A DNA stretch of 60,909 nucleotides from Spirochaetales bacterium (GCA_007135605.1 SLIN01000075.1:1-60909); one strand, 5' to 3'; shown: positions 7,348-52,985, numbered from the stretch's first letter. The notes: generated by a model from the sequence alone, not told the origin. Made by a program: numbers and translations.

Positions 7348-7392
7348 TGGTGTATCATATCACTAATACACTGGTATAGTGATACACATTGA
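7348..7392. promoter_or_regulatory. Nested palindromes immediately upstream of the GntR gene: GTGTAT-N10-ATACAC, and GTGTATCA...TGATACAC with TATCA direct repeats. Candidate autoregulatory operator.
   Basis: Read directly: tggtgtatcatatcactaatacactggtatagtgatacacattg. Built on a GTGATA/TATCAC core. The site lies next to the regulator's own start. Confidence 0.4.
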
Positions 7393-7539
7393 CCGACATG
7401 TCAACAGAAAAGTGACCGGATATGCAACGAATTCGGCAAAGGTGTGGATATACGAGCGTAACGTGCGCCGGCCTTACCGGTAGCGCGTTATGCGCTTCGC
7501 TGTATACGGGCCCCGTCGATCCGGGGCCCGTAGGTGGGT

Positions 7540-8397
7540 CTACTTGTCGGCCTCGGTCAGGCCTTTCACGAAGCTCTTCTGCATACCGAGCACGAGCAAC
7601 ATGGTCGGGATCATCGAGAGGATGGTTATCGCCATGATGATGTGCCAGTCTGCTTGCGCATCTCCGGCGTTCAGCATTCGTCCGAGACCGATCATGACGG
7701 TATAGAAGCGTCGCTCGGTTGTGATCAGCAGAGGCCACAGATACTGGTTCCAGCCGTACACGAACTGGATGACGACCAGTGCCGCGATCGGCGTGCGCGA
7801 CATGGGGACGAGTATGTAGCTGAAGAAGCGCATCGGCCCCGCGCCGTCGATCTTCGCCGCCTCGACGAGCTGGTCGGGTATCGTCATGAAGTACTGCTTG
7901 AAGAGAAAGGTCGCCGTCGCCGACACCGCAAGGGGCAGTATGAGACCCACGTAGCTGTTGAGCATGCCGAGACTGGAAACCAGCCCGTATGTCGGCACGA
8001 TCCGGACTTCCACCGGCAGCATGAGAGTCATGAAGATTAACCAGAATAGAATACTGCGCCCGGGGAAGCGGAAGAACACGATGGCGAAGGTCGAAAGCAG
8101 CGACACGACGATCTTCGCTACGGTTATGCCGCCGGCCATGATAAAGCTGTTCTGAAGCATTACCCCGGCGCCGATCGCGCGCGCACCGCCGAGGCCGCGC
8201 CCACCGTGGAAGATAGCCTGGTAGTAGTTCTGGATAACCTCGCTTCCGGGAAGAAGCGGCATCGGTCGCTGGAATATCGCCGGGAGCGGAATAGTGGACG
8301 CCACGAACACGAAATAGATCGGAACTATAACGATAAGACAGCCGATGACGAGAAAGAAATGTCGAAAAACTCTGGTCGGTGTTGAATCGAAAATCAT
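7540..8397 (-). CDS. Carbohydrate ABC transporter permease (UgpE/LacG-like, MalG family).
   Basis: 285-aa, 6-TM, with the EAA-like loop (..EAAKIDGAGPMRFFSYILVP..). Confidence 0.85.
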   Translation of the reverse strand: MIFDSTPTRVFRHFFLVIGCLIVIVPIYFVFVASTIPLPAIFQRPMPLLPGSEVIQNYYQAIFHGGRGLGGARAIGAGVMLQNSFIMAGGITVAKIVVSLLSTFAIVFFRFPGRSILFWLIFMTLMLPVEVRIVPTYGLVSSLGMLNSYVGLILPLAVSATATFLFKQYFMTIPDQLVEAAKIDGAGPMRFFSYILVPMSRTPIAALVVIQFVYGWNQYLWPLLITTERRFYTVMIGLGRMLNAGDAQADWHIIMAITILSMIPTMLLVLGMQKSFVKGLTEADK

Positions 8398-11144: not shown

Positions 11145-14846
<3,702 letters not shown>

Positions 14847-18358: not shown

Positions 18359-18434
18359 CTCTTCGATTACAGTATCGGAGCGAGACGCCGCAGCCTTAGA
18401 AGTTTGTCGGGCGTGAAGGCGGTCCGACGAGCGT

Positions 18435-20654: not shown

Positions 20655-20676
20655 GATCTATAGCGATTCGGTGAAC

Positions 20677-21852
20677 TCAATCGATGGTGCGCTCACCCCG
20701 GATTAGCCGGGCGAGTTTCCGCAACGGTGCGGGGAATCGCCGCACTGCGCGGTGTCCGCCGATGAATGGAACCGGCCACGATGAGAGACCGAAGCCGACG
20801 GCACTTTCGAGCGGAGGCACGGGTTCGGCCTGAAACGCACCGTAAATGAGGTAAACGAGGCCGGCAAGAATAGCGAGTCCCAATAGCATGTACGCGACGA
20901 AGTAGATCGATGAGGGGCCGGCTGACGCCACGCTCGAATCGGCTTCGCCGGCAGTTTCCCCCTCCTCGTCCTCGATACCCGGCTCCGTGGCCGCGTGCGA
21001 AGCGAGGCGTTGATCCGCGTACGGTGAGTCGAACTCATCGAAAGAGAAGTCCTCGGTTTCGGCGCGGGCGGGCGCCGCTTCCTTACCTTCGACGGGTGTC
21101 AGCTCGTCGCTCGCAGCTTCGAGGGATGCCGGCTCTTCATACTCGCTCGCACCTTCCAGGGATTCCAGCTCGTCATACTCGCTCGCAGCTTCGAGCGGTG
21201 ACGGCTCTTCGTCCTCGCCCTCAGCGTCGAACTCGCCGGAAAACGGTTGCTCACTCTCACCGACGTCGCCCGACGCCTGATCGAACTCAGAATCATCCTC
21301 CTCGGGAAGCTCAAACGCAAGGTCGTCGAGGTCCGGGCCGCCGAACTCCGGTTCGTCGGCCGATTCCGGAGACGATTCATCCGGATCGAAAACCGGCGGT
21401 TCTTCGAGTTCCCCTGAAAGATCGAAGGTTTCCTCGTCGTCGAGGGAGAAATCCGGGAGCTCCTCCGAGGTACCCTCGACGGATGTCTCTGTGCCGATTT
21501 CGTCGGTACGATCGAGGCTGATCGAAAGACTCTGAGTATCGCCGTTCGAGAGATTCTGCGCGCGTGCCTGCAGTTGCCCCCGATCGTCAATGCCGACGAC
21601 GAGGCTGATCTCGACGCTTCCGGCGGAAGCGGAATCGATATCATCGATAACGAGGCTCCCGACGTACTCGGCGTTGGCGAGGTCGTGGCGATCACCCTGG
21701 TACATGTCTATCTGGACGCGCTCCTGATTGTCGCGTGAGGTGGTCAGCACGACCCGTTTTCGGCCACGGTCGTTCCGATCGAGGATCGGAAACCGCGACC
21801 CGTCTGCCGTCTTTATAGCGATCACAGCGTTGTCCACCGGTAATCCTCCCAA
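20677..21852 (-). CDS. Membrane protein whose only recognisable domain is an N-terminal Hsp70/DnaK substrate-binding beta-domain. This is followed by a long acidic repeat region, one TM helix and a roughly 55-aa tail.
   Basis: The N-terminal 110 aa align residue-by-residue with DnaK SBD-beta: MGGLPVDNAVIAIKTAD..QIDMYQGDR..VEISLVVGIDDRGQLQARAQNLSNGDTQSLSI versus [48 protein letters not shown]. The track start is TTG. GGAGGA followed by GTG at 21837 may be the real start. TM segment SIYFVAYMLLGLAILAGLVYLIYGAF. Confidence 0.6.
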   Translation of the reverse strand: MGGLPVDNAVIAIKTADGSRFPILDRNDRGRKRVVLTTSRDNQERVQIDMYQGDRHDLANAEYVGSLVIDDIDSASAGSVEISLVVGIDDRGQLQARAQNLSNGDTQSLSISLDRTDEIGTETSVEGTSEELPDFSLDDEETFDLSGELEEPPVFDPDESSPESADEPEFGGPDLDDLAFELPEEDDSEFDQASGDVGESEQPFSGEFDAEGEDEEPSPLEAASEYDELESLEGASEYEEPASLEAASDELTPVEGKEAAPARAETEDFSFDEFDSPYADQRLASHAATEPGIEDEEGETAGEADSSVASAGPSSIYFVAYMLLGLAILAGLVYLIYGAFQAEPVPPLESAVGFGLSSWPVPFIGGHRAVRRFPAPLRKLARLIRGERTID

Positions 21853-21945
21853 GCTCTGCGGGTCAAGCGTATGGCAGCGGTTCAGCCTTTGTCAACGAAA
21901 GCGGACTCGATTGACGAGGGCGAAACTCGACGGAATAATACCCGC

Positions 21946-23304
21946 ATGTCTCTCCCCGTCATTATCGGCATCCTGACGATCGGGATTATCGTCCTGGCGG
22001 CCATTGCCGTGTCTATTCTCAACCAGGATCGTCGAAAGAGCGGCGGTGGCGGCGGCAAGGTACGCGATCGCGCCACGATTCTGAAGCAGGCCAACAAGCG
22101 TCTCGCACAGAACCCGAAGGATGTCGGTGCGCTCAGCGAGCTCGCGGATCTCTACTATCGCGAAGAAGACTGGGAGAAGGCGTTCAAGACATACGACGCC
22201 CTCTTGCAGCTGGCTCCGAGCAACGATCAGGTTGACGAGTTCGAGGTCACTCTTCGGCACGCCCTCAGCGCCATGCGGGAAGGCCATCTCAATGAAGCGT
22301 ATAAGGGGCTGCTCCTTGCGCGACAGACGAAGCCGGATCTGTTCGAGATCAGCTACAACCTCGGATACCTGGAATTCCGGAGACGAAACTACGAGAAAGC
22401 GGTTTCGCTGCTCCGGGAGGCAAGTTCGCAGCAACCGGAGCATGGCGGGACACTCCGCTATCTCGGACAGGCGCTCTTTCGAATGAAGGAATACAAGAAT
22501 GCACTCGCGACCCTGCGTAGAGCGGTGGATCAGGAACCGGGGGATAAGGAGTCGCAGTTTGCACTTGCACAATGCTATTACGAGCTCGGTCAGCAGGAGC
22601 AGGCGTTGCGTATCTTCAGCCACCTCCGCGCCGATCCGACGCTCGGTCCGAGTGCCTCGTTGAGAGCCGGATTGATTCGCTCACAACAGAAGAAGTACGA
22701 GGAGGCGATCTACGACTTCGAGATCGGACTGAGGCACGAGTCGCTGAAGCCGGAAATCGAGCTCGAGCTGCGTTACCGCATGGCCAACGCGTACACACGC
22801 AATCAGCAGGTCAACAAGGCGGCACAGGTTCTTCGTGAAATTCACGCAATCAAGCCGGACTACAAAGATGTGGCAGCCCAGCTCGGTCGGGCGGAGGAGC
22901 TCAGCAGCGACAGGAATTTGCAGACGTATCTCATCGGCCCGTCGAGCGATTTTGTGAGCGTGTGCCGGCGCATAGTCGCCGCATATTTCTCGAATGCGAA
23001 CATGAAGCTCGAGGACATTCACGTGGAATCGAATCAGCACGCAGATCTGCTCGCCCAGGTGGAAACGCGGCACTGGGAGGATCTGATCCTGTTTCGATTT
23101 ATCCGCCACAGCGGCAATATCGGTGAGCTGATGCTGCGCGATTTCCACACGCGAATTAAGGAAGTGAAGGCCGGTCGCGGCATCTGTTTCTGTGCCGGTG
23201 AGTTCACCGATGGGGCACGGGCATTTGTGGAGGCTCGCCTGGTGGACCTCCACGACAAGAGAGAACTGCAGAAGCATCTGCAAAAGATCATGACGCGGTT
23301 CTAA
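21946..23304 (+). CDS. Membrane-anchored TPR-repeat protein with a C-terminal restriction-endonuclease-like (Mrr_cat/PD-(D/E)xK-like) domain.
   Basis: N-terminal TM LPVIIGILTIGIIVLAAIAVSIL, then multiple TPR motifs. The C-terminal 120 aa have Mrr_cat-like secondary-structure and motif order. An alternative upstream ATG at 21871 has no SD. 21946 is preceded by a TTGACG-17-AATAAT promoter-like element, suggesting a leaderless mRNA. Confidence 0.6.
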   Translation: MSLPVIIGILTIGIIVLAAIAVSILNQDRRKSGGGGGKVRDRATILKQANKRLAQNPKDVGALSELADLYYREEDWEKAFKTYDALLQLAPSNDQVDEFEVTLRHALSAMREGHLNEAYKGLLLARQTKPDLFEISYNLGYLEFRRRNYEKAVSLLREASSQQPEHGGTLRYLGQALFRMKEYKNALATLRRAVDQEPGDKESQFALAQCYYELGQQEQALRIFSHLRADPTLGPSASLRAGLIRSQQKKYEEAIYDFEIGLRHESLKPEIELELRYRMANAYTRNQQVNKAAQVLREIHAIKPDYKDVAAQLGRAEELSSDRNLQTYLIGPSSDFVSVCRRIVAAYFSNANMKLEDIHVESNQHADLLAQVETRHWEDLILFRFIRHSGNIGELMLRDFHTRIKEVKAGRGICFCAGEFTDGARAFVEARLVDLHDKRELQKHLQKIMTRF

Positions 23305-35890: not shown

Positions 35891-36928
35891 CTAATGCGCG
35901 ATTCTCGTTTCGACGGTCGAAAGATCGCCATTGTGCTGCTCCGGCGGGTGAATGAGATGGCACGCTACATGCCGGCCGCTGTCGGTGCGACGTAGCCGCG
36001 GTACGACGCTTCGGCATACATCCATGGCATAGGGGCAGCGGGTGTGAAACGGACAGCCGGACGGAGGGTTCGCAGGACTCGGCACATCACCCTTGAGGAT
36101 TATTCGCTCCTGCCTCCGCGCCGGATCGCTCACCGGTATTGCCGACAGAAGTGCCTGACTGTACGGATGCAGCGGATTTTCGTAGAGCTCCCGCTTTCCG
36201 GCCACCTCTACGAGCTTGCCGAGGTACATGACTCCGACACGCTCGGCCATGTGTTTCACGACACTCAAGTCGTGGCTTATAAAGAGGAAGGTGAGATCGA
36301 ACTCGTCCTGGAGATCTTCGAGCAAATTGATAATCTGACTCTGTATGCTCACATCGAGTGCCGATATCGGCTCGTCGGCGACGATAAGACTCGGATTCAA
36401 CGCCAGCGCACGGGCGATCACGACTCGCTGTCGCTGACCGCCGGAGAATTCGTGCGGATATCGTGATGCGTGGTGCCGTTGCAGTCCGCATGTTTCGAGT
36501 ACTCGCTCCGCCTTCTCGTGCAGTTCGTTTCCGGTTGCCATACCGTGGACTCGCATAATTTCGCGAATCGCGGCGCCGATCGTCATGCGCGGATTCAGCG
36601 CGCTGTACGGGTCCTGAAAGACGATCTGCATGTCCTTGCGAAGCACGCGCATCCGATCGCCGGTGGCGGCGTAAACATCTTCACCCTTGAAGATAACCTG
36701 CCCACCGGTGGCGTTCTGCAAACGCAGAATGGTTCGACCTGTTGTGCTTTTTCCACATCCGCTCTCTCCGACGAGCGCGAACGTCTCGCCGGGATAGATA
36801 TCGAAACTCACATCGTCGACCGCTTTGACGTACCCGGTCGTACGGCTGAACACCCCGGTCTTGATCGGAAAGTACTTCTTGAGATTGGTTACCTGCAGCA
36901 TCGGCTGTCGTTCGGCGGTACCGCTCAT
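35891..36928 (-). CDS. dppF: Peptide ABC transporter ATP-binding protein (DppF/OppF).
   Basis: Walker A GESGCGKST, signature LSGGQRQRV, C-terminal oligopeptide-transporter extension with Cys residues. Confidence 0.9.
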   Translation of the reverse strand: MSGTAERQPMLQVTNLKKYFPIKTGVFSRTTGYVKAVDDVSFDIYPGETFALVGESGCGKSTTGRTILRLQNATGGQVIFKGEDVYAATGDRMRVLRKDMQIVFQDPYSALNPRMTIGAAIREIMRVHGMATGNELHEKAERVLETCGLQRHHASRYPHEFSGGQRQRVVIARALALNPSLIVADEPISALDVSIQSQIINLLEDLQDEFDLTFLFISHDLSVVKHMAERVGVMYLGKLVEVAGKRELYENPLHPYSQALLSAIPVSDPARRQERIILKGDVPSPANPPSGCPFHTRCPYAMDVCRSVVPRLRRTDSGRHVACHLIHPPEQHNGDLSTVETRIAH

Positions 36929-36931
36929 ATG

Positions 36932-37954
<1,023 letters not shown>

Positions 37955-37970
37955 AGTCGCTTCCTGGATC

Positions 37971-38939
37971 TCAGTTACCCCGGCTTCTCGGGTCCAGCGC
38001 ATCGCGCAGCCCGTCACCGAGCAAGTTGAACCCGAGCACCATAAAGAGAATGGCAAGACCGGGATATGTCGTCAGGTGATGGGCCGTCCGAATGTATGCC
38101 CGCCCGTCGCTCAGAATTGCACCCCACTCGGGCATAGGGGCCTGCGCGCCGAGGCCGAGGAATCCGAGTCCGGCCGCCCAGAGAATCGACGTGGCGATTT
38201 GAAAGGTGCTCTGCACGATGATGGGCGCGAGACAGTTCGGCAGAATATGACGGAAGACGATGCTCGCGTCGCCGAGGCCCGCCGCGCGCGCCGCCTCGAC
38301 ATAACTCTGCTCCTTCGCCGCAAGAACCGACCCACGCACGAGCCGGGCATAGATCGGCACGCTCGCAATACCGGTTGCGATCATAACGTTCTGCACTCCG
38401 ACCCCGAGCACCGTTACAACGATGATCGCGAGGAGAATTCCGGGAAAGGCGATCATAATGTCGATAATTCGCTGGGTGAAAATGTCGAGCTTGCCGCCGT
38501 AGAAGCCGCTGATCGCACCGATCGGAACGCCGACGGCAACACCGATCACCACCGATATTAAGCCGATATTCAGTGATATCCGGCTTCCGTAGAGCATGCG
38601 GCTGTACAGGTCGCGACCGAGCGCGTCCGTGCCGAGCCAATGCGTCGTGCTCGGACTCTGTAGCCGCATGGTTAAGTTGTTCTGAATTGGGTTATGCGTT
38701 GTGAGAACCGGTGCGAACACCGCTCCGATTACAAAGATTCCTATTATAAGGAGGCCGATCACCGCGCCCCGGTTACGGAGAAGATGCTTTCCAACCTGAT
38801 GCCACTCCGAAACGCCTCGTCGGCGTCTCGGCGCCACCGTCCCGGTCGAAACGTCGTCTTCGAGGTCAACCGCCGGAATCTCCGCCTCTTCGTAGCCGCG
38901 GCTCTGTGTACCGGTGCCCGGGATTTCGTTCGTTTCCAT
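37971..38939 (-). CDS. dppC: Peptide ABC transporter permease (DppC/OppC).
   Basis: BPD_transp_1 with an N-terminal extension and the typical ..LGTDALGRDLYSRMLYG.. block. Confidence 0.9.
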   Translation of the reverse strand: METNEIPGTGTQSRGYEEAEIPAVDLEDDVSTGTVAPRRRRGVSEWHQVGKHLLRNRGAVIGLLIIGIFVIGAVFAPVLTTHNPIQNNLTMRLQSPSTTHWLGTDALGRDLYSRMLYGSRISLNIGLISVVIGVAVGVPIGAISGFYGGKLDIFTQRIIDIMIAFPGILLAIIVVTVLGVGVQNVMIATGIASVPIYARLVRGSVLAAKEQSYVEAARAAGLGDASIVFRHILPNCLAPIIVQSTFQIATSILWAAGLGFLGLGAQAPMPEWGAILSDGRAYIRTAHHLTTYPGLAILFMVLGFNLLGDGLRDALDPRSRGN

Positions 38940-38945
38940 CTCAGC

Positions 38946-39881
38946 TCACTCCCCGGCCTCGCCCTGATAGTGTATCCGCGGATCGAGAAACGCGTAGGTG
39001 ATGTCGACGACGAGGTTAATGATCACGAAAAGGAAGGCCATCAGCATGACCGTCCCCTGCACGACCGGATAGTCGCGACGCAGAATCGAATCGACGAGCA
39101 GGCGCCCGATTCCGGGCCACGCAAAGACCGTCTCGGTCAGCACCGCCCCGCCGAGCAGAATTCCGAACTGCAGCCCCATGACCGTCACGACCGGAATTAA
39201 CGCGTTCTTCAACGCATGCTTGTAGATAACAAAACGCTCATTCAACCCTTTTGCCCTGGCGGTAGTAATGAAATCCTGCCGCAGCACCTCGAGCATGCTT
39301 GAACGGGTAATACGCGCCATGAGTCCGGCGCTCGCCATGCCGAGTGTGATGCTCGGCAGCACGAGATGCCGCCACGTGCCGATGCCCGTGGCCGGGAGTA
39401 TCCGCATGTTCACCGCAAAAAGGAGTTGAAGCATAAGCGCCATCCAGAAGACCGGCGCCGCAACGCCGACAAGCGCGAAAAGCATGCTCACGTTGTCGAA
39501 CATCGAGTTCCGTCTGGTCGCCGAAACAATACCGGCGGACACCCCGACTATGGTCGCGATCACAAGCGCCGTCATTGCCAGGAGAAATGTTCTCGGAAAG
39601 CGCTCGCCGATTTCGGTCGCAACCGGTCGGCGGCTGAACGTCGATCTGCCGAGTTCGCCCCGAGCGAGATCGCCGAGAAAGATGCCGAACTGCACCGGCA
39701 GCGGCTCATCGAGCCGGTAGCGTGCCCGAACCTGCTGAATGAACTCGGGGCTCGCCTGTACCCCTGCGATCGCTCGGGCCGGGTCTCCCGGGATGAGCCG
39801 GATGATCGAGAACACCAGTATTGCCACGCCGAATATAACCGGAACGGTCAGCAGCAGTCTTCGCGCGATGTATTGATACAC
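38946..39881 (-). CDS. dppB: Peptide ABC transporter permease (DppB/OppB).
   Basis: MYQYIARRLLLTVPVIFGVAILVFSIIRLIPGDPA N-terminus is diagnostic. Confidence 0.9.
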   Translation of the reverse strand: MYQYIARRLLLTVPVIFGVAILVFSIIRLIPGDPARAIAGVQASPEFIQQVRARYRLDEPLPVQFGIFLGDLARGELGRSTFSRRPVATEIGERFPRTFLLAMTALVIATIVGVSAGIVSATRRNSMFDNVSMLFALVGVAAPVFWMALMLQLLFAVNMRILPATGIGTWRHLVLPSITLGMASAGLMARITRSSMLEVLRQDFITTARAKGLNERFVIYKHALKNALIPVVTVMGLQFGILLGGAVLTETVFAWPGIGRLLVDSILRRDYPVVQGTVMLMAFLFVIINLVVDITYAFLDPRIHYQGEAGE

Positions 39882-40040
39882 GAGTTCCTAACTCCGCAGT
39901 TGTCGATTTCGGCCCAATCGAACCGCATCGCCGGAGCGATGAAGCTCGAGCCGGCCGGCGAACGGCAGAGCGGAACCGTACGTCGGTTCCGCTCGCACCG
40001 GCCGCAGCCGGATTGACCTGAGTAGCACAAGACTACCCGA

Positions 40041-41621
40041 TCAGTCGTCGATGAAGAAGGCCTCCCAGGCGCTTACGTTCTCGAGCGGATGGTGAATCAG
40101 TCCGCCGACATCCGCGCGCTGTGCGTTGATTTGCCCCTCGTTGTGCAGGTAGAGCCACGGAGCGTCGTCCCAGATCAACTCGATCGCCTCCGCATAGAGC
40201 TCCTCGCGTACCGACGGGTCGGTTTCGACGCGAGCCCGGTCGAGTATATCGTCGACCCGCTCGTTGCTGTAGAATCCGCGGTTGTTCCCGGCGGGATTCC
40301 ACTGGCGGGTGTGCAGCAGCGCGTAGAGTCCGTAATCGGAATCGAGGGTTACCGTACCCCAGCCGAGCATGAACATCTGGTACTCGGCCTGATCGACCGG
40401 CTGACCGGTGAAATCGAGGTAAGCACCCCACTCGCGGGTCTCGAGGGTGATGTCGAGCCCCACCTCGGTAAGCATACCCTGCACCGCTTCGGCGATCGTC
40501 GAGTCGAGCAGGTAGCGTCCGGTCGGGTGATGCAGCGTGGCGCTGAGCCCGTCGGGATACCCGGCTTCGGCGAGAAGCTCCCGGGCGCGATCGGGGTCGT
40601 ATTCGTACGGGCCGACGGAGGTGTGTCCGAACACCGCCGGAACAACCGGCGCATCGGCGACGAACGCGTTGCCGTCGAGGATAGCGTCGACGATCGCGTC
40701 CTTGTCCACCGCGTAGTTGAACGCTTTCCGGACGAGCGGGTCGTCGAACGGCTCGGACTGGCTGTTGAAGCCGATATAGATCGTGCGGACGCTCGTCTGG
40801 TAGACGACGTCGATCTCCGGATCGGCATCGAGACGATCGGCATCCTGGGGCGGTACGCGCATGACCGCGTCGGCCTCGCCGGTCTCCAGAGCCACCATTC
40901 GAGCCGAATCTTCCGGGATGAAGCGGAAAACGAGATGCGGAATCTCGGGCGCCGGTCCCCAGTAATCCTCGTTCCGAACCATGGTAATGCTGTCGCCGCG
41001 GCTCCACTCCACGAGCTCGTACGGGCCGGTTCCGACTGCGGCATCCGTCGTATCATCCGGGCCGAGATCCGCGAACGAGGCCGGGCTGATGATGCCGATG
41101 AAGCTGTGGGAGAGGTGGCTGAGGATCGGGGCGAACGGCTCGGCCAAGTGCAAGCGCAGCTCGTACTCGCTCACCGCTTCGATCTCCTCGACACTTCCGA
41201 GGAGAAAGGCGTACGCGGCACCTACCTCTGGATCGACGAAGCGATCGAGATTCGCCTTCACCGCCTCGGCGTTGAGCGGCTCGCCGTCGTGAAACTGAAC
41301 GCCCTGCCGGATCTGGAACGTCCACTCGGTGCCGTCGGCGCTGCTCTCCCACTCGGTGGCGAGCATCGGCGTCAGGCTCCCGTCCTCCTCCATGTAGATC
41401 AGGCGCTGGATCGCATGCTCGCCCACCGTCGCAGCCGGCGCGCTGGTCATGTTCACGGGATCGAGCGCCTCGGGCTCTGCGCCGATGGCGATCGTTATCG
41501 TGTCGCGCTCGACGGCCGCCTCCTGAGCGCCACCCGCGAACGCCGCCATTCCGACGAACACAAAGACTAAGACGAGGGCCAGCGTCGCTAACCGCCCGTG
41601 CATATGCATAGTCGTACGCAT
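40041..41621 (-). CDS. dppA: Peptide/nickel ABC transporter substrate-binding protein (SBP family 5, DppA/OppA-like), acidic.
   Basis: Signal peptide plus SBP_bac_5 architecture. By my count the start codon sits at 41620..41622, one base off the track's coordinate. Confidence 0.85.
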   Translation of the reverse strand: MRTTMHMHGRLATLALVLVFVFVGMAAFAGGAQEAAVERDTITIAIGAEPEALDPVNMTSAPAATVGEHAIQRLIYMEEDGSLTPMLATEWESSADGTEWTFQIRQGVQFHDGEPLNAEAVKANLDRFVDPEVGAAYAFLLGSVEEIEAVSEYELRLHLAEPFAPILSHLSHSFIGIISPASFADLGPDDTTDAAVGTGPYELVEWSRGDSITMVRNEDYWGPAPEIPHLVFRFIPEDSARMVALETGEADAVMRVPPQDADRLDADPEIDVVYQTSVRTIYIGFNSQSEPFDDPLVRKAFNYAVDKDAIVDAILDGNAFVADAPVVPAVFGHTSVGPYEYDPDRARELLAEAGYPDGLSATLHHPTGRYLLDSTIAEAVQGMLTEVGLDITLETREWGAYLDFTGQPVDQAEYQMFMLGWGTVTLDSDYGLYALLHTRQWNPAGNNRGFYSNERVDDILDRARVETDPSVREELYAEAIELIWDDAPWLYLHNEGQINAQRADVGGLIHHPLENVSAWEAFFIDD

Positions 41622-43156: not shown

Positions 43157-43347
43157 ACACGCCATCGTACCCCGACGTTGCCCCTCGCGCATAGCCGATA
43201 GTACCATGCCGTAATTGAATATTGGGACTGCCACGTGCATATTCATAGCAAACGCGCCGCATGCCCACGCACGGGTTTACGCCGAATATTCAATTCCGGA
43301 GTGAAGTCCGACAAGCTCATAGGTGCGGCCTCACAGGTGCGGAACCA

Positions 43348-46300
43348 ATGGCAATGAACGAGCTCAAGAGATCCATCCTCGAACACGCGCCGGCCGCATA
43401 TCGCAGCGATTTCGAAGAACGCGAGATCGATGAGCATATCGTCGCGATCCGCTCGCTCTCGTTCGAGAAACCGTATGTTCTCAGTCTCACCGGCGACCCC
43501 GCTTCGTGTAGCGTCACCGTGGTCAGCCACGATCGCCGCGGCCTTTTCAGTATGATCACCGGATTGCTTTCATCGGCGGGCCTTTCGATCGTTCGGGGCG
43601 AGGTATACACGCTTCAGATCGACGCCTCGCTCCTCGACACCGGCAATAGCGTACCTCGAGGCGGCGGTAGAAAGCCGGGTCCCTTCGGACGTGCGCGACT
43701 CGGGCGCCGCCCGTCCGCCGGTGGCGGGGCCGCTACCGGCGGGACACCGGAGCCGCCCACCGGGATGAAGGTGATCGTCGACCGGTTCACCGGCTCGCTC
43801 ACCCCCGACCGCGGGTGGGATGAGTTCGCATCCCGGCTCGAGGCTTCGTTCCGCCGGCTGTATGAGACGCTCGCCGAAAACGGCAATGAGGCCGGACGGC
43901 GACTCGTTGCTGAGGAAGTCGCCGCGCGAATCGCCGAGCTGCCGCCGAGCGAGGGGCAGACTCTTGCTCCGATTCACATCGAGGAGATGACCGGTGCGGG
44001 ATCGATTACACGATTCTCGATCCGGACCGCCGACACCCCGTTTTTCCTGTACAGTTTCAGCCACGCGTTGAGCCTGCACAATACCTCGATCGAGCGAGTG
44101 GATATACAGACGGTCGGCACCGAAATACGCGATTTCTTCGATGTCGTGGGACCGAGCGGCGCTCCGATCCGCGATCGCGTGCGACTCGACCGCATTCGGC
44201 TCAGCATCCTCCTGACCAAACAGTTCACCTTTGTGCTCGACCGTGCACCCGACCCGTACGCGGCGATGGAACGATTCGACCGGCTGATTCAGGACCTCGG
44301 CGAAACCGAAGCGGCACCCGACCTTCGCAGGCTGTTGTCCGACCGGGATATGCAGCGCGAACTGGCGGTTCTCCTCGGGGCGAGCGACTTCATCTGGGAG
44401 GACTTCGTGCGGCAGCAGCGGGAGAACCTCCTGCCGATGCTCGAGCAGATCGAGGAACACCGCCTGCTTTCGTTCGAAGCCGAGGAGATGGAAGATCGCC
44501 TCGCTGAGGCGATGGCGAACGCCGCAGCGCCCGACTCCGCAACGGACGCGGCCGGGGACGCCGCCGATCCGGTCGCCGCACGGGTGGAGGCGCTCAACGC
44601 CTTTAAAGATCGACAGAGCTTTCTCATCGACCTCGACCACATGCTCTCGCCCGACATCGATTTTTTCTTTCTCAGCAGGCGTCTGACCGCTCTCGCCGAG
44701 GCGGTCGTTCGAGCGGCACTCTCGCTCGCCTGGGAGAAGACAACCGCCCGCTTCGGTACACCGCGGACCGCAGCCGGGCTGCCGGCGCGCTACGCCACCT
44801 TCGGCCTCGGCAAACTCGGCGGGTCCGCTCTCGGCTACGCCTCCGACATCGAGCTGCTCTTCGTCTATAGCGATTCGGGCTCGACCGACGGGCCGGAGAA
44901 GATCCGGAACGCAGAGTTCTTCGAGTATCTCTTCCGTACCGCGACGGCATTCATTCGGGCACGCCGCGAAGGCATTTTCCAGACCGACCTGCGCCTGCGC
45001 CCTTACGGCGAAGACGGCCCCCTCGCCTGCACGCTCGAGCGCTTCGTCGAGTACTACACCGCCGACGGGCCGGCCCACGCGGTCGAACGACTGGCGCTGG
45101 TGCGGCTGCGACAGATCGACGGCGACAGCGAGCTCGGCCGCCGTGTGGTCCGAATCCGCGACGAGATCCTCTATCAGCGCGACAGCATACGCATTGCCGC
45201 AGTACGCGAGCTGCGCCGCACCCAGCTCGAGGGAAAACTCGACGGCGGCAGGCTCAACGCGAAGTTCACTCCCGGAGGTCTGGTCGACGTCGAGTACAAC
45301 GTCCAGATTCTTCAGATCGGACGCGGCAGGCACAATCCGGCACTGCGCTGTCCCGGCATCCACGACGCGCTCGAGGCGCTGCGCGACGAAGGAACCATCG
45401 AGCCTGACGAGGCCGATGCGATGATCGCCGCGTACCGTTTTCTGCGTCGGCTCATCAACGGACTGCGCATGCTGCGCGGCAACGCCCAGGACCTCTTCAT
45501 GCCGCCGTTCGACAGTACCGAATGCGCCCATCTCGCCCGTCGCATCGGATACCGCCGGGGAGAAGATCTCTCCGAAGCGCAGCAGCTGAAGCTCGACTTC
45601 GAGACCCACACCGCGTTCGTGCGAGCGTTCGTAGAGCGCCACCTCGGCGCCGACGCGATTCCCGGCGAGGTCGAAGGAGGCCCCGCCGATCTCGTGCTCT
45701 CCGGGTCGCTTTCCGCATCGCGGCGCAATGCGATTCTCGAGCGAGTCGGCGTACGAGACCCGGAGCGTTCGTTCGCTAACATCTCCGAGATCCAACGAAT
45801 TGTCGCCGATGACGCGCGTTTTTCACGCGTCTTGATTCTCGTGTGGGATCCGCTCGCACGCGTGCCGGACGCCGACATGGCGCTGAACAACTGGGAGCGC
45901 TTCGTGCGCTCGTGTCCGCATCCCGAAGGGCATCTCTCCGATATACTCGAACAGCCGGAGCGGTTGGAAATCCTTTTCACCATATTCTCCGGCAGCCAGT
46001 TTCTCTCCGATACGCTGGCCTCCGATCCGGACGTATTTGCCTGGATCACGGAGCCGGAGACGGTCGAGCGGACATATTCCGACGGCGAGCTCGCCCGCGA
46101 GCTGAGGGCCGGTTGGCAGCGTGTGCGTGCCCGCGACCGGGATGCCTGGCTTGCGGTACTCAGACGATTTCGGAAGCGGCACATTCTACGCATCGGTACG
46201 CGCGATATCTGCCTCGGCGAAGCATTGCCGGTTGTAACCGCCGAGATCAGCAGCCTCGCGCGCGCGGTCGTACGCGTCGGGCTCGAGGCGGTATGGGCGC

Positions 46301-47364
46301 GGGAGGTATGGCGCTGGTCCCAACAACCGCGTGTCAAAGCGGCCCCGGACGAGGGTCACGAAGGTCCGGAGAAGCTGAGCGATGCGCCGGGCGGCACGAC
46401 AGGAGCGGGAGAGTCACCCGACGCGGCGGTACCTCCGAGGATACGCCGTTCGCTCGCGGCAAGCGCAGTGCGGCTTACCATTCTCGCTTTCGGGAAGCTC
46501 GGCGGCGACGAGTTGAACTACAGCTCCGACATCGATCTGCTGGCGGTCTTTGAGCCGGAAGGGGTATCCGGCGAGACGGCGACCTATACCGAAGTCGTTC
46601 GCTCGCTGATTCGCGATCTTACCGAGTTTACCACCGAGGGACAGTGCTATCGGGTCGACATGCGATTGCGGCCGCACGGGATCGCGGGAGCGCTGGTACT
46701 CCCCGCCGAGCGGGCCCTGGAGTACTACCGTGCGGAAGCACAGCTGTGGGAGAAGCAGGCGCTGCTGAAGTTGAGCCCGGTCGCCGGCTCGCGGCCGGTC
46801 GGCAGGCGCTTTATGTCCGGCATACGGGAACTCTTTGCGACACCGGTCTCCCCGTCGGATGCCCGTGCCGGCATCGCGCACCTTCGCCGGCTTGCGATCG
46901 AGCAATCGGCGAACACCACCGTGGCGACACTCTCATCGGCAGGACGTGCGAAGAGTACAAACGAGGTCATGGGAACGCGCGATATCAAGAACGACGAAGG
47001 CGGAATACGCGATATAGAGTTCGGTGTGCAGCTCCTGCAACTGGGTAACGTGCACGAAGATGAAAGGCTGTTGACCGGTAACACGATCTTGGCACTCTCC
47101 GCGCTCGAAGAGACGGGGTTGATCGAACACGAACAGGCCGAACAGTTGCGCGGCGACTATATAATCCTTCGCAAGATCGAGCACTTCCTGCAGTTGTACG
47201 GCGATCGCCGGCTGCACGCGCTTCCAACCGACGAAATCGCCCGATCGCGGATGGCACACACCGTGGGAATCGCGGACAGCGGAGCGGAGTTCTTCGAGCG
47301 GCTTTCCGAATGCATGCGTCGAACCCGCGAGTTCTATCGCGCGCTCATCATCAATCCATTATAA
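43348..47364 (+). CDS. glnE: Glutamine synthetase adenylyltransferase/adenylyl-removing enzyme GlnE, with two extra N-terminal ACT domains.
   Basis: Two GlnE nucleotidyltransferase domains (..TFGLGKLGGSALGYASDIELLFVY.. and ..ILAFGKLGGDELNYSSDIDLLAVFE..) are preceded by about 330 aa containing two ACT-like folds (..VTVVSHDRRGLFSMITGLLSSAGLSIVRGEV.. and ..FSIRTADTPFFLYSFSHALSLHNTSIERVDIQT..). Start taken at MAMNELK. The antisense 741-aa ORF 43570..45795 is a shadow. Confidence 0.85.
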   Translation: MAMNELKRSILEHAPAAYRSDFEEREIDEHIVAIRSLSFEKPYVLSLTGDPASCSVTVVSHDRRGLFSMITGLLSSAGLSIVRGEVYTLQIDASLLDTGNSVPRGGGRKPGPFGRARLGRRPSAGGGAATGGTPEPPTGMKVIVDRFTGSLTPDRGWDEFASRLEASFRRLYETLAENGNEAGRRLVAEEVAARIAELPPSEGQTLAPIHIEEMTGAGSITRFSIRTADTPFFLYSFSHALSLHNTSIERVDIQTVGTEIRDFFDVVGPSGAPIRDRVRLDRIRLSILLTKQFTFVLDRAPDPYAAMERFDRLIQDLGETEAAPDLRRLLSDRDMQRELAVLLGASDFIWEDFVRQQRENLLPMLEQIEEHRLLSFEAEEMEDRLAEAMANAAAPDSATDAAGDAADPVAARVEALNAFKDRQSFLIDLDHMLSPDIDFFFLSRRLTALAEAVVRAALSLAWEKTTARFGTPRTAAGLPARYATFGLGKLGGSALGYASDIELLFVYSDSGSTDGPEKIRNAEFFEYLFRTATAFIRARREGIFQTDLRLRPYGEDGPLACTLERFVEYYTADGPAHAVERLALVRLRQIDGDSELGRRVVRIRDEILYQRDSIRIAAVRELRRTQLEGKLDGGRLNAKFTPGGLVDVEYNVQILQIGRGRHNPALRCPGIHDALEALRDEGTIEPDEADAMIAAYRFLRRLINGLRMLRGNAQDLFMPPFDSTECAHLARRIGYRRGEDLSEAQQLKLDFETHTAFVRAFVERHLGADAIPGEVEGGPADLVLSGSLSASRRNAILERVGVRDPERSFANISEIQRIVADDARFSRVLILVWDPLARVPDADMALNNWERFVRSCPHPEGHLSDILEQPERLEILFTIFSGSQFLSDTLASDPDVFAWITEPETVERTYSDGELARELRAGWQRVRARDRDAWLAVLRRFRKRHILRIGTRDICLGEALPVVTAEISSLARAVVRVGLEAVWAREVWRWSQQPRVKAAPDEGHEGPEKLSDAPGGTTGAGESPDAAVPPRIRRSLAASAVRLTILAFGKLGGDELNYSSDIDLLAVFEPEGVSGETATYTEVVRSLIRDLTEFTTEGQCYRVDMRLRPHGIAGALVLPAERALEYYRAEAQLWEKQALLKLSPVAGSRPVGRRFMSGIRELFATPVSPSDARAGIAHLRRLAIEQSANTTVATLSSAGRAKSTNEVMGTRDIKNDEGGIRDIEFGVQLLQLGNVHEDERLLTGNTILALSALEETGLIEHEQAEQLRGDYIILRKIEHFLQLYGDRRLHALPTDEIARSRMAHTVGIADSGAEFFERLSECMRRTREFYRALIINPL

Positions 47365-47572
47365 CACGGTTCATGAACCTACATTTATGTAGGAACCATG
47401 ACGACAGGCAACAAAAATGTTCCATTTTTTTGTCAAACCTACTTTTCTTTCTGATTCGAGTGTGCTACGTTCCGCATAAAGATTCTATAAATATGTCGTT
47501 CGGTTGCATGTGCCGCCGCCGCGGCATGCGGAGGATCGACGACAAGATCCAATTCTGCAGGAGGATGTGAGA

Positions 47573-48994
47573 ATGAGTGAGAAGACTCCGAAGGAGATTC
47601 TGAGCTTAATGGAAAAGGAGAAGGTCCAGGTCGTCGACCTTCGCTTCATGGACTTCCCGGGTATCTGGCAGCACTTCAGCATTCCGGCGCACGAGCTCGA
47701 CGAGGATACGTTCCGTGACGGAATGGGATTCGACGGATCGAGCATTCGCGGCTGGCAGGCAATCAACGAAAGCGACATGATCGTCAAGCCGGTTCCCGAC
47801 AGTGCGTTCATCGACCCGTACATGACCGCCCGCACGCTCGTTATGACATGCGATATCTGCGATCCGGTCACCGGCGAAGACTATACGCGCGACCCGCGCA
47901 GCGTCGCCCGCAAGGCGGAGACCTATCTGAAATCGACCGGAATCGGCGATACCGCCTTCTTCGGCCCGGAGGCGGAGTTCTTCGTCTTCGACGATATCCG
48001 TTACGACCAGAACGAGCACTGCGGCTACTACTTCGTCGATTCGGTCGAAGGGCGGTGGAACTCCGGACGGGTCGAGGAGCCGAACCTCGGAAACAAGCTT
48101 CGATACAAGGAAGGCTACTTTCCGTGTCCTCCGGCCGACAGCCTGCAGAACCTTCGCAGCGAGATGATGCTCACCCTCGAGTCGCTCGGCGTGGCGGTCG
48201 AGGCGCAACACCACGAAGTGGCTACCGGCGGCCAGTGCGAGATCGACATGCGCTTTGCCCCGCTCGTACAGATGGCGGACAACCTGTTGAAGTACAAGTA
48301 CGTCATCAAGAACACCGCCCGCGCACACAACAAGGTGGTCACATTCATGCCGAAGCCGCTGTGGAACGACAACGGAAGCGGCATGCACATTCACATGTCG
48401 TTCTGGAAGGATGGAAAGAACCAGTTCTATGGTGATGGGTACGCGGGCCTTTCGCAGACCGCCCTCTACGCAATCGGCGGTCTGCTCAAGCACGCACCGA
48501 GCGTACTCGCGTTCAGCAACCCGACCACCAACAGCTACAAGCGGCTCGTACCCGGCTTCGAGGCTCCCGTGAATCTCGCCTACTCCAGCCGAAACCGCTC
48601 GGCGGCGGTGCGCATTCCGATGTACAGCCAGAGCGAGAAAGCAAAGCGCTTCGAGTTCCGCTGCCCCGATCCGAGCGGCAACGCGTACCTCACCTTCAGT
48701 GCAATGCTCATGGCCGCGGTCGACGGAATCCAGAACAAGATCGATCCCGGTGAGCCCCTCGACAAGAACATCTACGATCTGCCGCCGGCAGAAGCGGCGC
48801 AGGTACCGAAAACGCCGGGCAGCCTCCGCGAGGCGCTCGAGCACCTCGCCGTCGACCACGAGTTCTTGCTGAAAGGAGATGTTTTCACCAAGGATGTGGT
48901 GGAGACGTGGATCGAGTACAAGCACGACAACGAGGTCATGGAGGTGGATACGCGGCCGCATCCGTACGAGTTCGCGCTTTACCAGGACATATAG
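47573..48994 (+). CDS. glnA: Glutamine synthetase type I.
   Basis: Full-length GSI conservation, including the adenylylation-site region (..NLYDLP..). GGAGGA SD lies 8 nt upstream of ATG 47573. Confidence 0.95.
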
Positions 48995-49122: not shown

Positions 49123-50382
49123 CTACGTTCGTCGGAGCCGCGGCAGAGAAAAGCGCACTACGGTTCCCTCCCCCGACCGGCTTTCGGCGGCGATGCGACC
49201 GCCCTGCGCTTCGACGAAGTACCGGGAAATCGTCAAACCGATGCCCGCCCCGTCGTCGTCCGACCGCGACCGCGCGGCGTCCGCACGATAGAAACGTTCG
49301 AAGATGTGCGGAATCGCCTCCGGAGCGATGCCTTCACCGCTGTCGCGTATCTCGACGACTACGTACGGTAGCTCCGCCACCGGCGGGTCGGGCGACACCC
49401 CGGGGGAGCCAAGCGGCTCACCATGTGTGGCTTCCGCGGTCGCTGACGGGGTACCGATCGGATCGCGACCGGCCACTTCGGCGCCGGTGCTGTATGCGGT
49501 CCGTACGACCACTTCGCCGCCCGGCGGCGTGTGCCGAAGCGCATTCCGGACGATATTCGACAGCACCTGAACGGTTCGGTCCGGGTCGGCGAACACCACA
49601 TCGTCGCTCGCCGCCGCGCCGCGCGCCGCCGGCACGTGAAGCCGGACGCCCTTCTCGGCGAACGCCTTACCCTGGTCGGCTTCGAGCTGGATGAAGAGTG
49701 TCGAGAGGCGGGTTTCCCGAGGATGGACTTCCTGCACTCCGGCCTCGACCCGAGATATCAGCGAGAGATCGTCCACGAGTCGTCCGAGACGCGAGATCTG
49801 GCGCGAGCACGATTCGAGGGTTTCCGGACCGGCTTCAAAGGCCCCATCCTGCAACCCTTCCACATAGCCGCGAAGACTTGAGAGCGGAGTGCGGAACTCG
49901 TGAGCGACCGTCGCAACAAGTGACCGCCGCCGCTCTTCGACCCGCTCGAGTTCGGCGGCCATCCTGTTAAACGCCGCGGCCAGCTCGCCGACCTCACCGG
50001 GAGAGGACTCGTCGAGCCGTTCCCCGTAGTTCCCCTCGGCGATACGCCCGCTCGCCCGCTCCATGCTTCGAAGCGGATCGCTGAGGCGCCGGCTGAGAAG
50101 CAAGCTCACACCCCCTGCGACCGCGAGCGCTACTCCGAGCCCGAGCAGGAGCGCTCGCTGCATCGCCCGCCGGTATGCGGAATCGAGTAGCTCGACCATC
50201 TGTTCCTGCACCCTCATCGACATGCCGCCCATTCCCTGCATCCCGTGCATGGCCGGCCCGCGGTGCATCTCGATAAAGCGCGGAGCCGCCGCCTCACTCG
50301 CAAGAAACAGAACGATTCCGGCGATCACGAGCACCAGGACGTAGGAGAAGAAGAGACGGACCGAAATACCGGGGCCTCTCAT
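49123..50382 (-). CDS. Sensor histidine kinase (2 TM helices, HAMP, HisKA, HATPase_c) with a roughly 35-aa Met-rich periplasmic loop.
   Basis: H-box ..VAHEFRTPLSSL.., N/G boxes present. Start taken at MRGPGISVRLFF (50382), which has a GGGAGG SD. The track's start is TTG at 50454. Periplasmic loop ..HRGPAMHGMQGMGGMSMRVQEQM.. Confidence 0.85.
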   Translation of the reverse strand: MRGPGISVRLFFSYVLVLVIAGIVLFLASEAAAPRFIEMHRGPAMHGMQGMGGMSMRVQEQMVELLDSAYRRAMQRALLLGLGVALAVAGGVSLLLSRRLSDPLRSMERASGRIAEGNYGERLDESSPGEVGELAAAFNRMAAELERVEERRRSLVATVAHEFRTPLSSLRGYVEGLQDGAFEAGPETLESCSRQISRLGRLVDDLSLISRVEAGVQEVHPRETRLSTLFIQLEADQGKAFAEKGVRLHVPAARGAAASDDVVFADPDRTVQVLSNIVRNALRHTPPGGEVVVRTAYSTGAEVAGRDPIGTPSATAEATHGEPLGSPGVSPDPPVAELPYVVVEIRDSGEGIAPEAIPHIFERFYRADAARSRSDDDGAGIGLTISRYFVEAQGGRIAAESRSGEGTVVRFSLPRLRRT

Positions 50383-50450
50383 ACGCCCGCCTCCCACTGC
50401 AGCGCTCCGGCTTTGGTCGGTTCCGTCGCGACCCGACACTCGTCCGCCCA

Positions 50451-51323
50451 TCAATCGTCCTCCTCGACGGCGAAGCGATAGCCCACACCCCGCACCGTCT
50501 CAATGTACGCCGGATGGTGAACCGGCCGATCGCCGCCGGCGACGCCCGCGGCGGAATCTTCTCCCGCACTGGGGAAATCTTCGTCACCGGCGCCCACCCC
50601 CGCGGCGGGGCGATCTTCCGTGCCGGGGTCTTCCCCCGCCCCCGCGGCAAGTTTTGCGCGCAGGTTCGACACGTGCACGTCGACCACCCGGTCGACTCCG
50701 ACGTAGTCCTCGCCCCAGATCCTCGAAAGCAACTCGTCACGCGTAAACACGCGCTTCGGCGAGCGCGCGAGCACCAGCAGAAGCTCGAACTCCCGCGTCG
50801 TCAGGTCGATTTCCCGGTCATCGAGATGGACCAGCCGCGTTTCCGAGTCGATGTGAAGCGCCCCGAAGCGCAGCGGCCGCGTTCCCGGTTGCCCGCCCTC
50901 ACCGACCGATTCCCGGCCGCCGGACGCGCCGGCGCGGTCATCCGTCGGGACCACCGCGGCCCTGCTCATCACCGCCTTCACTCGGGCAACGAGCTCGCGA
51001 GGGCTGAACGGTTTCACCACATAGTCGTCGACTCCGTACTCGAAGCCGGTCAGCCGGTCCTCCTCTTCTCCCTTCGCCGTGAGCATAATGACCGGTATCG
51101 CACGCCTGGCGCGGAGCCGCTTCATGAACGCCGGCCCGGCGGTTCCCGGGAGCATCCAGTCGAGGATGATCAGGTCGGGGCGCCGGCTGCCTTCCAGCGC
51201 CTCGTACAAGCCGGCCGTTCCGTCGCCGACCGTCCGCACCGCGTAGCCGACGCGCTCCAGATAGACCCGAACCACGCGCGCGATATCCTCATCATCCTCG
51301 ACTACCAGCACGAACCGCTCCAT
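50451..51323 (-). CDS. OmpR-family response regulator with low-complexity insertions in the linker and inside the winged-helix domain.
   Basis: Receiver ..VLVVEDDEDIARVV..ILDWMLPG.., wHTH ..RVFTRDELLSRIWG..VDVHVSNLRAKL[43-aa insert]..IETVRGVGYRF. ATG at 51321..51323. Confidence 0.85.
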   Translation of the reverse strand: MERFVLVVEDDEDIARVVRVYLERVGYAVRTVGDGTAGLYEALEGSRRPDLIILDWMLPGTAGPAFMKRLRARRAIPVIMLTAKGEEEDRLTGFEYGVDDYVVKPFSPRELVARVKAVMSRAAVVPTDDRAGASGGRESVGEGGQPGTRPLRFGALHIDSETRLVHLDDREIDLTTREFELLLVLARSPKRVFTRDELLSRIWGEDYVGVDRVVDVHVSNLRAKLAAGAGEDPGTEDRPAAGVGAGDEDFPSAGEDSAAGVAGGDRPVHHPAYIETVRGVGYRFAVEEDD

Positions 51324-51568
51324 ACACCGCATTCTATCACCGCTGAATGTTAAGCAGCGATAAAGGCGTGTTCGGGATGGAATCTCGCTCTCTGACCGCC
51401 CCAAGCCGGGCAGCAAACTCCCGATCGCGGGCGAGCCCTGCCGGGCACAATTGCCACGGTTGCAGTTGATCGGGCGACATCACCTCATTTGTCGGTTTAC
51501 CGCATGCCGCGCACGCGATATTCTGCACCTCCTGTGGTACACTGCGGGAGTATGCAGGAGGAGATGGT

Positions 51569-52909: not shown

Positions 52910-52983
52910 GCCCCGGTAGCTCAGCTGGATAGAGCGGCTGCCTCCTAAGCAGCAGGTCACGCGTTCGAATCGCGTCCGGGGTA
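52910..52983 (+). tRNA. tRNA-Arg (anticodon CCT).
   Basis: Manual fold: acceptor GCCCCGG/CCGGGGT, D-arm GCTC-AGCTGGATA-GAGC, anticodon stem GCTGC/GCAGC with loop CTCCTAA (U33, CCT, A37), T-arm ACGCG-TTCGAAT-CGCGT. Confidence 0.85.
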
Positions 52984-52985
52984 CG

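Follow-up and report, generated by a model that had tools for sequence, protein, structure and literature searches.

A GlnE subfamily with a GlnD-type tandem ACT pair fused before one nucleotidyltransferase half

The 60,909-nt stretch of Spirochaetales DNA considered here (the window; Spirochaetales bacterium, GCA_007135605.1 SLIN01000075.1:1-60909, whose numbering is used for all window coordinates) carries at 43348..47364 on the plus strand a gene for a GlnE-type glutamine synthetase (GS) adenylyltransferase, in which roughly 300 extra N-terminal residues form a tandem ACT pair of the GlnD type. The protein belongs to a widespread GlnE subfamily in which the GlnD sensor is fused before one of the two nucleotidyltransferase (NT) halves, and for which we found no published description. 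In the nitrogen control system of E. coli, GlnD mainly senses glutamine and marks PII, and PII in turn tells GlnE to switch GS off or on. On balance, we lean towards a reading in which the protein would be a GS adenylylation switch with its own GlnD-type ACT sensor, probably for glutamine.

The N-terminal module begins with a helical region (aa 1-40, 43348..43467, +) that is homologous, by hhalign, to the stretch of GlnD leading from the HD domain to ACT1. It continues with ACT1 (aa 43-178, 43474..43881, +), which is delimited by model secondary structure, invariant alignment columns, an NCBIfam GlnD match and a weak Pfam ACT match, and with ACT2 (aa 210-297, 43975..44238, +), which is delimited by the family alignment, the structural model and a second NCBIfam GlnD match, and which bears an invariant DTPFF loop. 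Among NCBIfam models, the N-terminus is matched solely by those for GlnD: aa 9-97 align with positions 694-784 of one such model (940 positions in all; E 1.9e-13), and aa 183-277 with positions 669-766 of another (782 positions; E 1e-7). A profile built from the aligned N-terminal segments of 28 diverse homologs is collinear in hhalign with residues 653-870 of the 890 residues of E. coli GlnD (96% probability, E 3.8e-9) and with residues 563-804 of the 821 residues of a Desulfobacteraceae GlnD (98%, E 2.8e-13), the latter match spanning the pre-ACT1 helices, ACT1 and ACT2; the control comparison with E. coli GlnE gave no match (probability 0.15%). The AlphaFold2 model computed from the same alignment, with a predicted local distance difference test score (pLDDT) of 86.4 and a predicted template-modelling score of 0.84, contains two beta-alpha-beta-beta-alpha units and helices at aa 2-36, with disorder only at aa 105-136. 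The tandem ACT domains suggested in a preliminary description of this sequence are thus borne out by the NCBIfam matches, by hhalign against two GlnD proteins and by the predicted fold, and they are homologous to the C-terminus of E. coli GlnD; the two peptides quoted there lie at aa 56-86 and 223-266. Pfam finds no HD domain in the protein, and the GlnD equivalog models score it at 13-49 bits against cut-offs of 519-1299.

Conservation within the module points in the same direction. The family-invariant residues are D62, G72, G84, T88 and D145 in ACT1 and D229, T230, F233, L234, I253, T255 and D262 in ACT2, and the hhalign alignments place the invariant Asp, Thr and Asp-x-Phe positions on residues that the ACT domains of GlnD also conserve. 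They include the Asp and Phe positions that were singled out as conserved when a glutamine-activated ACT domain was aligned with those of GlnD and ACR11 (PMC11190351). A disordered Arg/Gly-rich insertion lies between strands of ACT1 (aa 93-138, 43624..43761, +; pLDDT below 50 at aa 105-136); the region is rich in gaps in the alignment, and among homologs the insertion ranges from 0 to about 90 aa and is often very basic. PDB sequences gave chance-level matches only, whether the N-terminal region was searched as one sequence or in profile form, and the PDB holds no GlnD structure or ligand complex.

The remainder of the protein is that of a GlnE. The open frame runs from 43261 to 47364 (+), and the start at 43348 within it yields 1338 aa plus a stop codon, identical to database entry P0001, so that the 1339 aa given in the preliminary description are corrected by one. 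A start at 43261 was rejected, as it would lie 14 nt from the divergent M20 peptidase gene and as the module is kept in all homologs. Pfam recognizes GlnE (PF03710, 3.7e-82) in three stretches and GlnD_UR_UTase (PF08335, 1.6e-38) in two. By boundaries from hidden Markov models (HMMs), the half that follows the ACT pair, here called h1, occupies aa 326-767 (44323..45648, +), contains both GlnE and GlnD_UR_UTase domains and is probably adenylyltransferase-like; after an 83-aa linker (45649..45897, +), the other half, h2, occupies aa 851-1335 (45898..47352, +) and appears, from scores considered below, to be deadenylylase-like. Both catalytic motifs, GLGKLGGSALGYASDIEL in h1 (aa 486-503, 44803-44856, +) and GKLGGDELNYSSDIDL in h2 (aa 1049-1064, 46492-46539, +), are intact and align with D173/D175 of E. 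coli, with D-I-E replacing D-x-D in h1. The two GlnE NT domains of the preliminary description are therefore present, by Pfam and by motif, and the protein has the make-up of the GlnE superfamily, with two polymerase-beta-like NT domains carrying G-x-G...D-x-[DE], each followed by a GlnD_UR_UTase helical domain.

The fused architecture is neither rare nor confined to one lineage. All of the best 120 homologs listed carry the module, at lengths of 1186-1399 aa and with coverage of 94-100% in all but one; because the N-terminal extension is kept in all of them, chance is excluded as its source, and these relatives have the long form, not the ordinary GlnE that the preliminary description had allowed for. 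In a set clustered at 50% identity, the N-terminal profile recovered 288 cluster representatives at E<=1e-30, a figure that rises to 1494 at E<=1e-10, and the motif DTP[FA]FL[YF][SA][LI][SA] led to confirmed relatives in 293 of 185,579 species genomes. The 80 relatives' loci that were kept from this motif search for locus comparisons come mostly from Spirochaetota, with others from Desulfobacterota, Planctomycetota, Verrucomicrobiota/Kiritimatiellales, Fibrobacterota and FCPU426; members from Chloroflexota (Anaerolineae) were obtained by a separate look-up. The closest named relatives of the window protein in the motif search belong to metagenome-assembled genomes (MAGs) of Spirochaetales and Spirochaetaceae. 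Where source records give a name, it is "glutamate-ammonia-ligase adenylyltransferase", and NCBI calls some of the Anaerolineae members "ACT domain-containing protein", so that the domain is visible to annotation pipelines, though not interpreted by them. Full-text literature searches on GlnE, GS adenylyltransferase and the ACT domain found no published description of an ACT-bearing GlnE, and a literature search on GlnD distribution and glutamine sensing found nothing relevant.

An aspect of the family that the preliminary description did not mention is the constant relationship between the ACT pair and one of the two catalytic halves. An HMM of each half separates h1 from h2 cleanly, and all 275 proteins examined (homologs and best profile matches) could be classified. 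The window arrangement, ACT-ACT-h1-h2, accounts for 164 of them; 17, from Anaerolineae, are h2-ACT-ACT-h1, and 38 are ACT-ACT-h1 only, a group in which fragments are mixed with true proteins of about 725-775 aa. None has the ACT pair directly before h2, and the remaining 56 are 33 ACT pairs without an NT half and 23 variants with incomplete halves. Thus, in whichever of the three fused or split architectures it occurs, the ACT pair directly precedes h1 and never h2. The split state is illustrated by locus L098, in which a 746-aa ACT-ACT-h1 protein (P0222, 4096-6336, +) is encoded convergently to, and slightly overlapping with, a 571-aa single half (6278-7993, -) that is of the h2 type (314 bits with the h2 model, 201 with that of h1) and contains the exact E. 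coli deadenylylase motif GKLGGGELNFSSDIDL. No h2-type gene lies within 10 kb of the single-half ACT-ACT-h1 genes of two Phycisphaeraceae (L031, 9821-12226; L033, 9902-12196), and in these organisms the deadenylylase half may be absent or encoded elsewhere. At two further loci (L021, 3756-7617; L057, 9698-13872) the gene is broken into two overlapping open reading frames (ORFs) in different frames, which could be due to a frameshift or an error in sequencing, or could be a genuine split. Within proteins of the window type, h1 is the most conserved part, with a median identity of 57%, compared with 39% for h2 and 33% for the ACT module.

We considered which of the two halves adds adenosine monophosphate (AMP) and which removes it by comparison with canonical GlnE, whose N-terminal half is the deadenylylase (AR) and whose C-terminal half is the adenylyltransferase (AT). 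The canonical set covers ten taxa, E. coli and nine chromosomes filed in the plasmid collection PLSDB; records there such as NZ_AP026896.1, NZ_CP119140.1 and NZ_CP104131.1 are 2-12 Mb long, carry a housekeeping glnE and are evidently chromosomes mislabelled as plasmids. The HMM of h2 places every canonical AR half above its AT partner, and reciprocally each h2 half tested scores higher with the canonical AR HMM than with that of AT, the margin being 12 to 65 bits. The h1 halves lean weakly to the AT HMM (group means of -3 to -18 bits, with mixed sign). Profile scores in hhalign agree, and are reciprocal, at 413 for h1 with AT versus 350 with AR and 603 for h2 with AR versus 519 with AT. A four-point test on group distances recovered the pairing (AR,h2|AT,h1) in 498 of 500 bootstraps, and 75% of 20,000 single quartets showed it as well. 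There are also motifs common to AR and h2 (ELNySSDIDL, YRVDxRLRP) and to AT and h1 (LGYxSD). In each of these comparisons h2 comes out AR-like, for which there is thus good support, and there is moderate support for h1 being AT-like, which together would make the window protein probably a permuted GlnE: where E. coli has AR, central domain and AT, it would have sensor, AT-like half and AR-like half. We consider this order fairly probable, and the evidence favours it over the canonical order assumed in the preliminary description. On the same assignment, the h2-ACT-ACT-h1 form would have the canonical AR-then-AT order, with the ACT pair at the position of the E. coli central domain. Derivation of h1 from the NT domain of GlnD was rejected, as isolated h1 halves have no GlnD match among NCBIfam models.

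Several results pull against the permuted order. The window's own h1 is undecided, scoring 187 bits with the AR HMM and 182 with that of AT. A strict neighbour-joining bipartition of AR+h2 from AT+h1 appeared in only 9 of 100 bootstraps, with each alternative at 0 of 100; canonical AR and AT halves are themselves not monophyletic in these trees, which makes this test too stringent. The positions of the best-matching stretches on isolated halves disagree among the three NCBIfam GlnE models. The AlphaFold2 model of h1 (pLDDT 86.6) is about equally close in Foldseek to the AR structure 1V4A (E 1.4e-19) and the AT structure 3K7D (E 1.4e-16), with a template-modelling (TM) score of about 0.7. Finally, h1 and AT are two long branches, so that long-branch attraction may have drawn them together.

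The presumed substrate is encoded next to the gene. A type I GS of 473 aa (glnA, 47573-48994, +; TIGR00653, 3.7e-196) follows on the same strand, and its product has the adenylylation-loop tyrosine, Tyr401, within DKNIYDLPP (48773-48775, +). The adjacency had been recognized in the preliminary description, with a gap of 206 nt that proves to be 208 nt (47365..47572). This spacer has a G+C content of 45%, compared with about 62% for the window, and contains a perfect palindrome, CCTACATTTATGTAGG (47378-47393), that could be an operator. Rfam finds no riboswitch or other RNA in the spacer, a scan for sigma-70 promoters and terminators gave nothing above chance, and no convincing sigma-54 or GlnR/TnrA-type site was seen there by eye. 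Adjacency to glnA recurs in 19 of the 80 relatives' loci. The tyrosine loop, as DK[ND]IYDLP, is present in 23 of 26 linked GS ORFs examined; the three exceptions include one ORF truncated where its contig stops and one that is fused and incomplete.

The family is tied to PII and AmtB as well as to GS. The window itself contains no PII, AmtB, GlnD or second GlnE-like ORF detectable by tblastn, or by phmmer searches of every ORF of 70 aa or more with E. coli GlnB, GlnK, AmtB and GlnD, which confirms the reported absence of glnB, glnD and glnK from these 60.9 kb but has no bearing on the remainder of the genome. Among the 70 loci with at least 1.5 kb of upstream sequence, amtB-glnK is directly upstream on the same strand in 21, and PII and amtB are in the flank in 25; both glnA and PII are linked at only 2 loci. 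The PII proteins of these 21 amtB-glnK-(ACT-glnE) loci (L010, L011, L012 and 18 others) have an unusual T-loop, GCGQQKGYxESYRG, in which the tyrosine is retained. In a Desulfobacteraceae MAG (L070), a complete GlnD homolog is encoded by an 821-aa ORF (18377-20839, -) 4.7 kb from the ACT-glnE gene, so the two sensor-bearing enzymes coexist in at least one genome. The preliminary description had proposed that the fused enzyme could work without the GlnD and PII relay; for the family this is contradicted by the upstream amtB-glnK genes and by the GlnD near one relative, and in view of this linkage a PII-free relay cannot be claimed for it.

We suggest the following model for the window protein. 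The enzyme would reversibly adenylylate Tyr401 of the GS encoded 208 nt downstream, with h1 adding AMP and h2 removing it. The ACT pair would bind a small ligand that reports nitrogen status, most likely glutamine as in GlnD, and at high ligand levels would act in cis to turn h1 on and h2 off. In other words, the ACT pair may supply to GlnE the input that in E. coli arrives indirectly, by way of GlnD and uridylylated PII, with PII probably still adding information on 2-oxoglutarate and energy in many carriers. Glutamine is favoured as the ligand because this module serves GlnD as its sensor and because related ACT pairs respond to glutamine; a glutamine-sensing role of GlnD ACT domains is supported by literature cited in PMC3173338 and PMC11190351. 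Direct sensing of glutamine, which the preliminary description proposed, is not itself new. The canonical GlnE enzymes of E. coli and H. seropedicae sense glutamine by means of their C-terminal adenylyltransferase portion, and there are GlnE that function independently of PII (preprint 10.64898/2026.09.02.748916). Since the canonical AT part already does this, the novelty lies in the borrowed GlnD sensor, that is the GlnD-type ACT pair itself, and in its placement.

A number of observations weigh against this model as a whole. The need for an additional glutamine sensor is not evident, given the glutamine site that canonical GlnE possesses in its AT part. The Pfam check suggested in the preliminary description succeeded for GlnE and GlnD_UR_UTase and fell short for ACT, with PF01842 scoring 19.9 bits on aa 56-88 against a cut-off of 27; some relatives do pass (P0236 with 29.1 bits and P0251 with 29.7 bits). 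All three NCBIfam GlnE equivalogs score below their cut-offs (403 of 487 bits for PRK11072, 423 of 625 for PRK14109 and 323 of 724 for PRK14108). A conserved glycine in the beta1-alpha1 loop is the usual ligand-binding feature of ACT domains (PMC3173338); the DRRGLF sequence of ACT1 contains this glycine, yet it is not invariant across the family, and the invariant DTPFF loop of ACT2 has none where GlnD has D-x-P-G-L. Because this loop lacks the glycine typical of GlnD ACT domains, the ligand may be something other than glutamine.

In a rival account, the protein does modify GS and the ACT pair serves another end, whether by binding a different metabolite such as another amino acid, by acting as an oligomerization or autoinhibitory module, or by providing a PII-docking surface that replaces the central domain. 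The family-specific DTPFF loop would fit such a role, as would the central-domain position of the pair in the h2-ACT-ACT-h1 form, the PII genes directly upstream in 21 of 70 relatives and the sensing of glutamine elsewhere in canonical GlnE. It is, however, only GlnD models of NCBIfam that match the module, and the match extends from the pre-ACT helices through all of it; in addition, its conserved Asp, Thr and Asp-x-Phe residues coincide with conserved GlnD positions, and GlnD-type ACT domains elsewhere, in plant ACR11 and Chlamydomonas AMA2, are linked to glutamine. We regard this account as possible but rather unlikely. A more radical alternative makes the protein an analogue of GlnD, which would modify the T-loop tyrosine of PII, with h1 as the transferase, h2 as the remover in place of the HD domain and the ACT pair as glutamine sensor, GS being not the target or not the sole one. 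Its attraction is the same-strand amtB-glnK-(gene) order at 21 loci, which mirrors the actinobacterial amtB-glnK-glnD order, together with the T-loop tyrosine kept by the linked PII proteins, a domain logic of sensor, transferase and removing activity that parallels GlnD, and the fact that no GlnD was seen in any Spirochaetota locus among the 80 searched. Against this, both NT halves are of the GlnE type and isolated h1 has no NCBIfam GlnD match, h2 closely resembles the canonical AR half, whose substrate is adenylylated GS, and in the window and 19 relatives the neighbour is glnA rather than PII, with the adenylylation tyrosine kept in those GS proteins; a regulatory role of PII towards GlnE would account equally well for the two genes lying side by side. 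On this evidence the GlnD-analogue account seems improbable. We have similar doubts about its broadest version, in which the family would be the missing glutamine sensor where GlnD is not known, and in the amtB-glnK-(gene) operons h1 would nucleotidylylate the T-loop tyrosine of PII and h2 would reverse this, possibly with GS as a further target.

We also considered whether the architecture is an artefact, that is a misassembly, a wrong start or a decaying fusion whose functionless N-terminus precedes an ordinary PII-controlled GlnE. In favour of this are the origin of the window as a contig of a metagenome-assembled genome, a Pfam ACT score that falls short of the threshold and the disordered insertion in ACT1. 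All 120 listed homologs nevertheless share this architecture, as do relatives in 293 species genomes spread over several phyla. Moreover, the module shows invariant residues and a confidently predicted fold, and its position beside h1 is constant through three arrangements. A fusion or assembly artefact is effectively refuted by these features, and we give the idea almost no credence. The reading that we prefer thus remains that of a GS adenylylation switch with a GlnD-type sensor in cis, probably responsive to glutamine.

Other features of the window are recorded here for completeness. Two complete genomes (L001, L002) share the gene order MnmE, GDPD, three unnamed genes, M20 peptidase, glnE and glnA, a synteny that supports placing the window on the chromosome of a spirochaete. 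In the window, five consecutive same-strand ORFs (35891-41621, -) lie between the MnmE-GDPD and M20 peptidase-glnE-glnA blocks; the one of the five that was scanned (40041-41621, -) encodes a 526-aa family-5 solute-binding protein, and we assume that the run is an oligopeptide-type ABC transporter operon. L001 and L002 have no such five genes between the blocks and instead have a gene for an LPG_synthase_C-domain protein just before glnE. Convergent to glnA is a two-component system (49123-51416, -) consisting of a HAMP/HisKA/HATPase kinase and an OmpR-type regulator; low-complexity Gly/Ala/Asp-rich stretches are apparent by eye inside conserved domains of both, and Pfam Trans_reg_C matches the regulator on positions 2-60 of 77 only. 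A 477-aa protein (21871-23304, +) combines many tetratricopeptide (TPR) repeats with a C-terminal Mrr_cat restriction-endonuclease-like domain, an unusual pairing. The gene for a 1215-aa LacZ-type beta-galactosidase of glycoside hydrolase family 2 (11145-14792, -) holds a GC-rich stretch at 12-14 kb (0.69), and a tRNA-Arg(CCT) at 52910-52984 (+) is the only RNA gene that Rfam finds in the window.

The presence of a GlnD sensor in cis before one catalytic half suggests a short circuit of the GlnD-PII relay, and does so in hundreds of genomes. To our knowledge, glutamine sensing is poorly understood in many phyla where uridylylation of PII by GlnD is not known. The family offers one way in which bacteria may read their nitrogen status at the GS-modifying enzyme itself, and this proposal is open to direct testing with a single purified protein together with its GS and glutamine. 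The fused forms, in two orders, and the split forms provide natural dissection constructs for assigning the two halves and for locating the regulatory contact. The common annotation, in turn, conceals a distinct subfamily, one whose scores do not reach the curated cut-offs of the GlnE equivalogs.

The known systems with which this protein can be compared each share only part of its design. Like canonical GlnE (E. coli b3053; structures 1V4A and 3K7D), it has two paralogous polymerase-beta-type NT halves, each followed by GlnD_UR_UTase and with the same catalytic motifs, an h1 fold that matches both structures at a TM score of about 0.7, and a link to type I GS with the adenylylation tyrosine. 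Unlike canonical GlnE, it has the GlnD-type ACT pair of about 300 aa that is absent from the E. coli enzyme, its halves are probably swapped and joined by an 83-aa linker, h1 has D-I-E, and its scores lie below the three NCBIfam cut-offs. With GlnD it shares an N-terminal module collinear with the last ~240 GlnD residues (pre-ACT helices, ACT1 and ACT2), the succession of an NT domain and PF08335, and an overall logic in which a tandem ACT sensor accompanies a transferase and a removing activity. It differs in having no HD domain, a sensor that is N-terminal rather than C-terminal, NT halves of the GlnE type, DTPFF in ACT2 in place of D-x-P-G-L and a variable disordered insertion in ACT1.

In actinobacteria, amtB, glnK and glnD form an operon in which GlnD adenylylates GlnK. 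Adenylylation of mycobacterial GlnK is reported in PMC3612183. The order of amtB, PII and a sensor-bearing nucleotidyltransferase recurs in 21 relatives of the window protein, although here the third gene encodes a GlnE-type double NT, and in the window the neighbour is glnA, with no PII gene. Another precedent for the recruitment of GlnD-like ACT domains to regulate a different enzyme is provided by plant ACR11 and ACR12 and by the Chlamydomonas alpha-amylase AMA2: ACR11 shows co-expression with the GS of chloroplasts (PMC3173338), glutamine activates AMA2 by way of its N-terminal ACT domain (PMC11190351), and the Pfam family ACT_ACR9_3rd matches ACT2 of the h2-ACT-ACT-h1 relatives. These proteins are eukaryotic, however, with the ACRs standing alone and AMA2 carrying a single ACT domain on a glycosidase, and in none of them is the sensor fused to a protein-modifying nucleotidyltransferase as it is in the family described here.

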